Shown here piece after piece: positions 49,496-51,412 of a DNA stretch of 64,000 nt. Both the position numbers and the translations under genes were made by a program. The notes under the pieces were generated by a model. The model saw only the letters and a program-made list of their open reading frames with translations. It was not told the origin of the DNA and searched no databases. The number at the start of each line of letters is the position of its first letter. Position 1 is the first letter of the stretch. The stretch is from Candidatus Sumerlaeaceae bacterium (GTDB lineage: Bacteria > Sumerlaeota > Sumerlaeia > Sumerlaeales > Sumerlaeaceae), in assembly GCA_049968255.1 (NCBI GenBank), contig JBMFRB010000001.1, positions 288,001-352,000 of the forward strand. The letters are read 5' to 3'.

Positions 49496-51412
49496 GTGAG
49501 ACGACCCGTAGTATTCCTTGCCAATCACAGCGTTCCCAAGCCTGTGCGCGAGCGATTTCTCCGCGGACTCAGGCAAGCAGGCTTCGAGCCCAAGCCATTC
49601 GTTGCTGATCCACTTCAACGCTGCCACGCGCTGCTCGAGTTTCTCCGCCACGCAGAAAAAGACTGCATTGCCCTCTTTGTGTGCTTGGATACGTCCGAGG
49701 CCATGTTAGCGCGCATTGTGGCGGGACACGCGCAAGGGCCGGTCTATGCTGTGTTGCAAGCGACCGACGGCGAAAAGCTCGTGCTTCCCCGGGAAGAGCT
49801 TGCCCCTGCTCCGTACGCCACAGTTGTGCCCTCAACTCCTGAAGCCCTGATCAGTTACCTGACGAAAATTTCTGTATCTTCGACGACTGAGACGAATAAA
49901 ACTCGTGCCGAGGTGGGGGGTTCGCCAGCTCATGCGGAAAGAGCGCCTTCGGTCACAGGGCGAAGAACGTTCAGCGAGGAAGACGCAGAATGGTTGGCGC
50001 GTCTCGCAAGCGATTTTCGGCCTCGTTTGCGCGAAGAAATTCGGCAACCTCTAAATGTCGCGAAGCAGGCCTCGCTAGACTTTTCGCACGAACTGCGGCA
50101 GATTATCTCACACGCGCGCAACCTTGCCGAGCGGCGGCGAGATGAGTTCGTCACGCCCCTGCATTATCTGGCCGCTATTGCGGGTTTTCCGGAGTGCGCA
50201 GGATATGAGCTCTTGCAGGAAATGGGCGTAGCCCTTGAAACTTTGGTGGAGCGAGTCCTAGCATCGCTTCCACCGGCGGAGGCGCCAGCACCTTGCACGT
50301 TCGCGCCGAGCGAAGAAGCTACAGCACTCGTGGCCTGCTCGAAACGCGTTGCCCGCCAGCGAAACCGGCGTGCACTCACGACGGTGGACCTTGTCGAGGG
50401 CATGGCGCAGCAAACCGAGTCGTTGGCTGCTACCATTCTTGCGGAATTTGGCGCCACGGCGGAGATGATCGCTGCGCGATTGGCAGAATTATCGATTCGC
50501 GAGGAGCAGCCGCCTGAAGAAGCGGATTCGGGAAAAAGCCCCGCTCCCCTTCCGGTTATTGACGCGGAAAAGGTTCGCCAGCTTGAGCGCAAATTCGTAG
50601 CAACACAGCGTGTACCGGTGGAGCAAGGCGATGCGACGAAGATCCCTGAGCAGGTGAGCCCACCCAAGGCCGAGCCTCTTTCTCATGACGCAACCGAAGT
50701 CGTCTCGGTTTTGAAAAGCCCGAATCAACCGGAGGACATCGATTTGGTAGGCGAACGAAAAACGCCGTTGGTGCTAAAGTGTGATCCGCAAAATCCGCCG
50801 TTGGAGGTGGTAGAAGAAGCAGCGGATTCACTGCTTGAGGGGAAGCTTGTGGCCTTCCCTACGGAGACCGTTTATGGGCTAGGAGTAGACGCCACAAATT
50901 TGTCCGCTCTCGAACGGCTTTATGAGGTGAAAGGGCGAGAACGCACACGAGCGATAGCTTTGCTCATTCACTCAATTTCGCAATTGCGCTACGTCGTGAG
51001 GGATATCCCCGAGGGGGTTCACGCGTTGATGGAGCAGTTCTGGCCGGGTCCGCTGACCATTGTTTTCCGGCGACATCCAAACGTGTTCGCTTCGCTTGCA
51101 CCGGACGACTCGATTGGCATCCGGATGCCAGATCATTATGTGGCCCTTGCGATTCTGAGCATGGTCGGGCGCCCCATCGCGACGACGAGTGCAAACCTAA
51201 GCGGCCAGGCACCAGCCCGCGAGGCGAGTGAGATCCTGGCGCAGCTCGGAACAAACGTCGACGTTATCGTGGATGCCGGGCGAAGCGGAGACCAGCCCGC
51301 TTCGACGGTGCTCTCTGTCATTGAGAAACCTTACCGCATTCTGCGCCCGGGGCCCATTACGGCCGCGCAAATTGAGGAGGTCGCGAGAGTCCCTGTTGTG
51401 AAAGAGCCCTAG
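49496..51412 (+). CDS. Fusion: unknown (TIR-like?) domain + two Clp-N repeats + TsaC/YrdC threonylcarbamoyl-AMP synthase
   Basis: GAGGAG RBS; Clp-N repeats at ~50081-50480; TsaC motifs VAFPTETVYGLG, KGR, WPGPLT, TTSANLSG, STV, LRPG from ~50764. Confidence 0.88.
   Translation: MRRPVVFLANHSVPKPVRERFLRGLRQAGFEPKPFVADPLQRCHALLEFLRHAEKDCIALFVCLDTSEAMLARIVAGHAQGPVYAVLQATDGEKLVLPREELAPAPYATVVPSTPEALISYLTKISVSSTTETNKTRAEVGGSPAHAERAPSVTGRRTFSEEDAEWLARLASDFRPRLREEIRQPLNVAKQASLDFSHELRQIISHARNLAERRRDEFVTPLHYLAAIAGFPECAGYELLQEMGVALETLVERVLASLPPAEAPAPCTFAPSEEATALVACSKRVARQRNRRALTTVDLVEGMAQQTESLAATILAEFGATAEMIAARLAELSIREEQPPEEADSGKSPAPLPVIDAEKVRQLERKFVATQRVPVEQGDATKIPEQVSPPKAEPLSHDATEVVSVLKSPNQPEDIDLVGERKTPLVLKCDPQNPPLEVVEEAADSLLEGKLVAFPTETVYGLGVDATNLSALERLYEVKGRERTRAIALLIHSISQLRYVVRDIPEGVHALMEQFWPGPLTIVFRRHPNVFASLAPDDSIGIRMPDHYVALAILSMVGRPIATTSANLSGQAPAREASEILAQLGTNVDVIVDAGRSGDQPASTVLSVIEKPYRILRPGPITAAQIEEVARVPVVKEP

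Follow-up and report, generated by a model that had tools for sequence, protein, structure and literature searches.

Threonylcarbamoyl-AMP (TC-AMP) synthases of the TsaC/Sua5 type belong to the small set of enzymes shared by all cellular life, and their described forms are simple. A 2023 review names TsaC, Sua5, HypF and TobZ as the architectures of the YrdC family, and the parts of it used here mention no PurE or Clp fusion (PMC10321239; like the other papers cited below, a source drawn on in part). The KxR/SxN tetrad of TsaC and Sua5 is essential for ATP binding (PMC6004061), and tsaC and sua5 rarely occur together in one genome, redundancy not being retained (PMC10321239). Here, we describe a gene at positions 49496..51412 (plus strand) of a 64,000-nucleotide stretch of a Candidatus Sumerlaeaceae genome, from now on referred to as the window, whose product consists of a decayed PurE-like domain, a Clp-N domain and a TsaC domain. 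The explanation we consider likely overall is that this protein is the sole TC-AMP synthase of the organism, carrying a PurE relic and a Clp-N domain that was inserted into an old PurE-TsaC fusion.

Domains of the fusion protein

The gene is a single unbroken open reading frame (ORF) of 638 amino acids with a GTG start and a TAG stop, and its full-length homologues elsewhere share 23-68% sequence identity with it. Scanning the whole protein against Pfam (E up to 1) matched only Sua5_yciO_yrdC and Clp_N. The TsaC-type threonylcarbamoyl-AMP synthase domain, identified through Pfam, NCBIfam and tetrad alignment, comprises residues 422-638 (50759..51409, plus strand). Sua5_yciO_yrdC (PF01300) matches at residues 446-619 (E 5.5e-54, 182.8 bits against a cut-off of 25.1) and the L-threonylcarbamoyladenylate synthase equivalog TIGR00057 aligns over residues 431-630 (192.3 bits, cut-off 123.2). 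The C-terminal domain of Sua5 (PF03481) has no Pfam match, and the protein stops 8 residues past the end of the TsaC model. All four tetrad residues are intact: K479 (50930-50932), R481 (50936-50938), S565 (51188-51190) and N567 (51194-51196), all on the plus strand. An earlier sequence-only reading of this locus had described an uninterrupted 638-residue ORF with tandem Clp-N repeats and a motif-complete TsaC without the Sua5 C-terminal domain, all of which the searches reported here confirm. It had also proposed looking for another tsaC or sua5 gene in the genome; none was found, the only further TIGR00057 match in this 95.75%-complete assembly being HypF (TIGR00143, 791.9 bits). TsaD, a TsaB-like protein and TsaE are all encoded in the same genome. 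Judged from sequence, the fusion gene is very probably the organism's only threonylcarbamoyl-AMP synthase and would have a catalytic housekeeping role. The C-terminal domain would condense threonine, CO2 or bicarbonate and ATP to yield TC-AMP, and the TsaD/TsaB/TsaE set would transfer this product onto A37 of ANN-decoding tRNAs, giving the t6A (N6-threonylcarbamoyladenosine) modification.

Residues 1-127 (49496..49876, plus strand) form a decayed domain of the PurE type (AIR carboxylase fold) that lacks the PurE motifs, as indicated by profile searches, AlphaFold2 modeling, Foldseek and alignments. The N-terminal domains of the window protein and of its counterparts from 10 other genomes of the family were aligned (n=11), and Pfam AIRC/PurE (PF00731) matches 6 of these 11 domains at E up to 10, with a best E of 1.4e-7. 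The window domain itself reaches 11.9 bits against a cut-off of 30 and thus falls outside the Pfam family. A profile built from the 11 domains retrieves PurE structures from the PDB (3trh_A, E 4.2e-9; 1o4v_A, 2.7e-7; and many more) and yields 477 matches at E up to 0.001 among 1.84 billion representative proteins, about 15 of which are family members of 600-685 amino acids, most others being PurE-sized. The AlphaFold2 model of residues 1-127 generated from the same alignment has a predicted local distance difference test (pLDDT) value of 84.1 and a predicted template modeling (pTM) score of 0.78. Among the PDB matches listed by Foldseek, there are only PurE, PAICS and LarB chains, with TM-scores of 0.70-0.78 on the query and E of about 2e-5 to 1e-4, which assigns the domain to the PurE fold. 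Sequence homology of the window domain to PurE is traced via the family profile and graded intermediates only.

The positions of the PurE motifs are unconserved in the window domain, where they read FLANHSVPK, VADPLQRC and CLDTSEAMLARI. When aligned with the genome's own stand-alone PurE as well as with intact fused PurE domains, the relic shows ANHSV, ADPLQR and DTSEAMLAR in place of the GSKSD, SAHRTP and GGAAHLAG loops of the stand-alone enzyme, and part of its C-terminal half is missing. We take these three loops to be the catalytic loops of PurE, and PDB titles naming H45, H59, H89 and S57 PurE mutants are consistent with this assignment. The stand-alone PurE scores 192.6 bits with TIGR01162 (cut-off 149.6), and a LarB-like paralogue is encoded in addition. 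A complex prediction with four copies of residues 1-127 scored 0.09 against a mark of 0.42 and returned no answer.

The sequence-only reading had assigned residues 1-125 to a degenerate TIR-like domain, which might cleave NAD or act in nucleotide signaling, and had proposed a link between nucleotide signaling and tRNA modification. The feature consistent with a TIR-like domain is a general alternation of strands and helices, which is common to many flavodoxin-like folds. No TIR family is detected by Pfam at E up to 10 in any of the 11 family N-terminal domains or among the Foldseek matches listed, and relatives carry a fully intact PurE domain at the same position. Because profile and Foldseek searches point to PurE/LarB instead, we reject the TIR-like assignment and give it practically no credence. 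The proposed signaling link is wrong as well: the N-terminus is a decayed PurE domain that goes back to a PurE-TsaC fusion found across the phylum.

Residues 195-340 (50078..50515, plus strand) represent a true double-repeat Clp-N domain consisting of two four-helix repeats without an AAA+ module, supported by Pfam, NCBIfam, the structural model and PDB alignments. Clp_N (PF02861) matches at residues 207-258 with 36.1 bits (cut-off 20.7), corresponding to repeat 1, and repeat 2 has no separate Pfam call. The NCBIfam ClpB and ClpA models align weakly over residues 197-341, that is, over both repeats, and in the full-length AlphaFold2 model the stretch from residue 198 to residue 331 folds into eight helices (2x4), with a pLDDT of about 90. 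The N-domains of ClpC2, Hsp104, ClpC1 and ClpB in the PDB align across both repeats, with a ClpC2 chain as the closest sequence match (E 1.6e-5), followed by Hsp104, ClpC1 and ClpB. No AAA family is found in Pfam or NCBIfam scans of the fusion protein, which places it outside the Clp/Hsp100 ATPases.

Two conserved helices flank the Clp-N domain. The first lies in linker 1 at residues 159-181 (49970..50038, plus strand), contains the motif FSEEDAEWLARLASDFRPRLREE, is conserved in alignments of the family and is family-specific; the full-length model places a helix at residues 161-174 (pLDDT about 78) with disorder on both sides. The second helix, IDAEKVRQLERKF, is found at residues 355-367 (50558..50596, plus strand) just after the Clp-N domain. 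It is part of linker 2 (about residues 341-421), which is otherwise disordered and variable, with a model helix at residues 357-371 (pLDDT 56-67) and pLDDT values below 50 for residues 371-420. Overall, disordered stretches of the full-length model comprise residues 91-106, 128-156, 175-189, 343-355 and 371-420. The individual domains are predicted confidently; the arrangement of the domains relative to each other cannot be read from the model because its overall pTM is only 0.40.

PurE-TsaC fusions in Sumerlaeota

In total, 75 genomes were scanned with the TsaC and PurE family models. They include that of the window (G000), with 13 belonging to its family and 62 lying outside of it; the phylum label Sumerlaeota follows database names. 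In 48 of these 62 genomes, PurE and TsaC matches fall into one and the same open frame, eight of these proteins having been read directly, and the other 14 genomes may be truly unfused or merely fragmented. This count, like those of gene adjacency given below, was read by eye from tables rather than computed. Several families, with G023, G020, G022, G011 and G068 as examples, have fused proteins that combine a full-scoring PurE with a full TsaC. Since no second TsaC and, beyond a LarB-like match, no second PurE was found in these five genomes, their fusion appears to be a bifunctional sole copy. G074, one of two genomes from other classes, carries purE and a Sua5-type gene next to each other and unfused.

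When the G023 protein was used as a database query, more than 100 clusters with PurE and TsaC were listed, and all named clusters among the matches listed are labeled BRC1, Sumerlaeota, Sumerlaeia or plainly 'bacterium' or 'soil metagenome'. The nearest named relative of the window protein is a partial sequence labeled Candidatus Sumerlaeaceae. Automatic naming has made the PurE+TsaC clusters either 'N5-CAIR mutase' or 'threonylcarbamoyl-AMP synthase', a label that is wrong or incomplete for many members, the window protein included.

The form carrying Clp-N is present in 12 of the 13 family genomes, and the PurE part is decayed in this family. It was not found in G064 (92% complete), and in G056 the gene is split over two contig ends. 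The sequence-only reading had been prepared to give up the fusion if relatives encoded its parts separately. Most relatives do lack Clp-N, yet PurE is fused to TsaC in them. The same findings bear on the question of whether the long ORF might be a misassembly chimera or the product of a sequencing frameshift, for which no supporting point was found and which we regard as next to impossible. Because the same architecture and domain order recur in 12 of 13 family genomes as well as in further database clusters, including many independent metagenome clusters, the ORF is not an assembly artefact. In addition, five short contig pieces from a public sequencing run match parts of the gene at at least 99% identity, with one base difference and no indels, although their cover is partial, leaving the 5' third and other stretches bare, and the run may be the window's own source. 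Among public sequencing runs carrying the gene, there was no RNA run and one weak DNA match (share 0.24, a hot-springs metagenome).

The decay of PurE can be followed through proteins that already contain Clp-N. P0200 (653 amino acids) combines a full PurE (179.6 bits) with Clp_N and TsaC, and the fused PurE domains of the Clp-N-bearing P0368, P0130, P0122 and P0127 score 67.2, 53.5, 23.2 and 17.0 bits, respectively, as compared with 11.9 bits in the window protein. TsaC domains fused to PurE score 204-261 bits with the family hidden Markov model versus 124-167 bits for Sua5-type domains. A quick maximum likelihood tree, calculated without bootstraps from 46 hand-picked TsaC domains of fetched loci (of about 140 matches), places the Clp-N-fused copies on one side of a branch (SH-aLRT, the Shimodaira-Hasegawa-like approximate likelihood ratio test, 90), apart from the Sua5-type clade (96). 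The window protein groups with G055, G056 and G066, and the PurE-TsaC proteins group weakly with the Clp-N family.

On the simplest reading of these sequences, the architecture would descend from a PurE-TsaC fusion. Its formation may be envisaged as three steps, starting with an ancestral PurE-TsaC fusion that would still be the bifunctional sole copy in several sister families. Within the family of the window, the Clp-N double repeat and its two conserved flanking helices would then have been inserted into the linker. Finally, a stand-alone purE would have taken over purine synthesis, with the fused PurE domain losing its motifs.

A second PurE-TsaC paralogue of about 540-600 amino acids was observed in two other families, f13 and f15 (loci L064, L066, L068 and L069). 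It has a low-complexity linker of 150-200 residues, a dead TsaC tetrad and a PurE domain that still scores 135-178 bits, and the genomes carrying it also hold stand-alone PurE and Sua5. This paralogue is a parallel case of a retained and probably non-catalytic fusion.

Tetrad loss, Sua5 and selection

Within the family of the window, the state of the tetrad and the presence of Sua5 are reciprocal. Four of the 12 fused copies have an intact tetrad (G000, G055, G056 and G066), and no Sua5-type gene was seen in these four genomes. The tetrad is lost in the other eight copies, all of which are still full-length ORFs, and seven of the corresponding genomes carry a Sua5-type gene (185-206 bits), the eighth, G058, being only 66% complete. 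All six short Sua5-type paralogues tested in relatives contain the Sua5_C domain, and the tetrad is kept in all 16 Sua5-type rows of the alignment. The same pattern is seen in f13 and f15: none of the four fused copies examined there retains the tetrad, and their genomes carry Sua5. These results agree with the published observation that tsaC and sua5 are seldom found together (PMC10321239). These genomes represent a natural experiment in redundancy: with Sua5 present, the fused copy loses its tetrad but survives.

Comparison of G000 and G055 shows that the TsaC domain is the slowest-changing part of the protein, with 88% identity and 0.07 non-synonymous differences per site, followed by Clp-N (0.18), the PurE relic (0.22) and the linkers (0.39-0.44). 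Synonymous differences amount to about 0.73-0.81 per site, and because these sites are saturated, only the ranking of the domains by non-synonymous change is used. The rate of change in the PurE relic and in Clp-N is roughly half that in the linkers, which argues that the N-terminal 420 residues are kept under selection. Copies with a dead tetrad are full-length ORFs at similar or greater divergence, and among their domains the TsaC-like one has stayed the best conserved; between G060 and G061, which both lack the tetrad, it shows 67% identity compared with 43-48% for the other domains. The fact that these copies keep the whole architecture at full length suggests a role beyond TC-AMP synthesis. 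This second, catalysis-independent role might be carried by the extra modules or by the TsaC-like fold itself. Tetrad loss with survival thus points to a moonlighting role of a universal tRNA-modification enzyme, and the dead-tetrad copies form a ready set of candidates for a pseudo-enzyme function.

Taken further, the tetrad-less copies might mean that the main job of the window protein is a non-catalytic one shared with these paralogues, t6A synthesis being started by another enzyme. That eight of 12 family copies are tetrad-less yet full-length fits this idea. It is, however, very unlikely for the window protein, whose tetrad is intact, whose TsaC domain is the slowest-evolving part and whose genome encodes TsaD and TsaE with no other TsaC or Sua5.

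An opposite possibility is that neither the PurE relic nor Clp-N has a function, both being leftovers still awaiting deletion, and that the protein is a TsaC with a long inert leader. The loss of all PurE motifs and of the glutamates of the phospho-arginine pockets described below would be expected in this case, as would the disordered and variable linkers, and sister families manage with PurE-TsaC proteins that lack Clp-N. Against this stand the confident folds of the N-terminal domain modeled alone (pLDDT 84) and of Clp-N (about 90), the slower change of the modules relative to the linkers despite synonymous saturation, and the retention of the modules in all 12 family genomes that bear the gene, the eight dead-tetrad ones included. 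We therefore consider an inert leader improbable. The PurE relic and Clp-N may instead serve as non-catalytic docking or regulatory/assembly modules, an assignment we put forward tentatively, as the likeliest role, and at somewhat below even odds.

Several observations weigh against the reading of the window protein as a sole synthase derived from an old fusion. P0006 and P0007, which share 46-52% identity with the window protein and are closer to it in sequence than the tetrad-intact G066, have lost the tetrad lysine and the SxN motif, which would mean repeated loss of the tetrad or an incomplete grouping. G013 keeps the tetrad and yet has a second TsaC-like match. It should also be noted that the genomes are kin and not independent, so that fewer evolutionary events took place than the counts suggest. 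In all six pairs compared, synonymous sites are saturated (pS 0.62-0.91, several dS values undefined), making dN/dS unreliable, and the deep branches of the TsaC tree are weak (27). Finally, the full-length model, with its pTM of 0.40, gives no sign that the extra modules would touch the catalytic domain.

The McsA/McsB pathway, genomic setting and known systems

The N-domains of ClpC have two phospho-arginine (pArg) pockets and bind both pArg substrates and the McsA/McsB complex (PMC12583610). ClpC2 has a Clp-N domain outside any AAA+ protein, a non-ATPase module that acts as a pArg sensor (PMC13345244). In the Clp-N domain of the window protein, the pocket glutamates of both TEH motifs are replaced by Leu222 and Val297 according to the alignment, whereas glutamate occupies the same two positions in ClpC1 as well as in the ClpB and ClpC-like proteins encoded by this genome; E32 and E106 of S. 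aureus ClpC were placed on the TEH motifs by residue count from the alignment and published primers (PMC12583610). The glutamate of repeat 1 is kept in only some family members. As both pocket positions are non-acidic, a canonical pArg pocket is unlikely in the window Clp-N domain.

McsA- and McsB-like genes are located directly downstream of tsaD on the same strand in the window's genome, followed by RNase PH. In this cluster, which lies outside the window on contig C8 (L080, 3001-8249, minus strand), the order is tsaD, McsA-like UVR protein, McsB-like arginine kinase, RNase PH and response regulator, and the gaps between the first four genes are 18-90 bp. As best matches to NCBIfam equivalogs, the McsA-like protein scores 109.5 bits (cut-off 210) and the McsB-like protein 314.1 bits (cut-off 385), both below the cut-off. 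The sequence-only reading had proposed searching the genome for mcsB and clpC, and ClpB and ClpC-like proteins are indeed present alongside this McsB-like one. In 6 of 13 family genomes (G000, G055, G056, G057, G065 and G066), no more than about 1 kb separates tsaD from mcsB, an arrangement seen in 0 of about 52 genomes elsewhere in the phylum for which both genes could be located. Conversely, mcsB adjoins a Clp ATPase gene in 26 of 39 other genomes and in 0 of 11 family genomes with both located. Because the genomes are kin, the adjacency of tsaD and mcsB may reflect a single rearrangement. The evidence from tsaD-mcsA-mcsB adjacency is circumstantial and should be seen as a lead, not a result.

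Together, these observations raise the possibility that Clp-N puts the TC-AMP synthase on the receiving end of the McsA/McsB arginine-phosphorylation pathway, binding pArg-marked proteins or McsA/McsB and thereby coupling t6A to proteotoxic stress. The binding properties of ClpC N-domains, the precedent of ClpC2 as a non-ATPase Clp-N sensor and closest PDB match, and the displacement of mcsB from Clp ATPase genes to tsaD within the family all favor such a coupling. The non-acidic residues at both TEH glutamate positions, the scores of the McsA- and McsB-like proteins and the restriction of the adjacency to half of a family of related genomes argue against it, and we consider it unlikely. This idea extends the explanation of the protein as a sole TC-AMP synthase with inserted modules and does not replace it. 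A link to protein quality control, which the sequence-only reading had suggested, accordingly fares unevenly: the gene order in six family genomes agrees with it, the loss of the pocket glutamates does not.

A still less likely proposal is that of a two-function protein that couples t6A synthesis to stress signaling by arginine phosphorylation through McsA/McsB. Here, one function would be TC-AMP synthesis and the other, a non-catalytic one, would be carried by Clp-N, the flanking helices and the TsaC-like fold; tRNA modification would be regulated by proteotoxic stress or would sense it, and the dead-tetrad paralogues would be pure regulators. If true, coupling through Clp-N and the tsaD-mcsAB cluster would mean that decoding accuracy is linked to arginine phosphorylation and proteostasis.

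The TsaD protein of the same genome (L080:6948-8249, minus strand) has 433 amino acids and matches its Pfam model in two separate pieces, covering about positions 2-118 and 99-263 of the model, suggesting an insertion in TsaD. Most members of the family show the same split, as do several further families of the class.

Upstream of the fusion gene, an rpoD-like gene is divergently transcribed (47234..49015, minus strand). The 480 bp intergenic region between them (49016..49495) has a GC content of about 47%, compared with 55-60% in the surroundings, and is presumed to be the site of the promoters of both genes. A divergent rpoD-like neighbor occurs in 5 of 13 loci inspected (G000, G055, G056, G059 and G063), these neighbors having been identified from N-terminal sequence alone. 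Downstream, a convergent ORF of 406 amino acids overlaps the stop codon of the fusion gene, and a 1484-residue ORF (52615-57069, plus strand) is located just beyond it.

With the fusion protein, a universal enzyme is seen in a new architecture, a finding more evolutionary than mechanistic in interest. No description of a PurE-TsaC or Clp-N-TsaC fusion was found in the literature searched (supplements excluded), in agreement with the sequence-only reading, which knew of no described fusion of its parts. The undescribed architecture thus comprises a PurE fusion across a phylum, to which Clp-N was added in one family. Like known TsaC/Sua5 synthases, the window protein has a C-terminal region of 215 amino acids that exceeds family cut-offs, contains the KxR/SxN tetrad and is the sole copy beside TsaD, a TsaB-like protein and TsaE. 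Described members are single-domain proteins or carry an additional SUA5 C-terminal domain (PMC10321239), whereas the window protein has about 420 extra N-terminal residues.

HypF, which is present in this genome, and TobZ likewise show that a YrdC-like domain tolerates fusion (PMC10321239). Their YrdC-like domain, however, is paired with a Kae1/TsaD-like transferase whose substrate is the adenylate, while the partners in the window protein would be non-catalytic. ClpC2 of Actinomycetota, a pArg- and antibiotic-responsive repressor, provides a precedent for a stand-alone Clp-N sensor or docking module (PMC13345244). Unlike the window protein, with its non-acidic pockets and enzymatic partner, ClpC2 keeps one pArg site and is joined to a DNA-binding/oligomerization partner. 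The N-terminal domain resembles PurE (N5-CAIR mutase) and LarB in fold and is related to PurE through intermediates; it differs from them in lacking the three motifs and part of the C-terminal half and in scoring below the Pfam cut-off.

Within the TsaC family, YciO keeps the tetrad. YciO and inactive TsaC paralogues illustrate that a second TsaC-family gene is not kept as a redundant synthase (PMC10321239); the dead-tetrad copies of sister genomes fit this pattern, and the window's own copy is, by its sequence, the active-looking one. The PurE-TsaC fusions of the phylum, represented by database entries only, have the same domain order and TsaC domains near those of the window's family. They differ from the window protein in that several families keep an intact PurE (about 180-205 bits) as their only purE and are without Clp-N.

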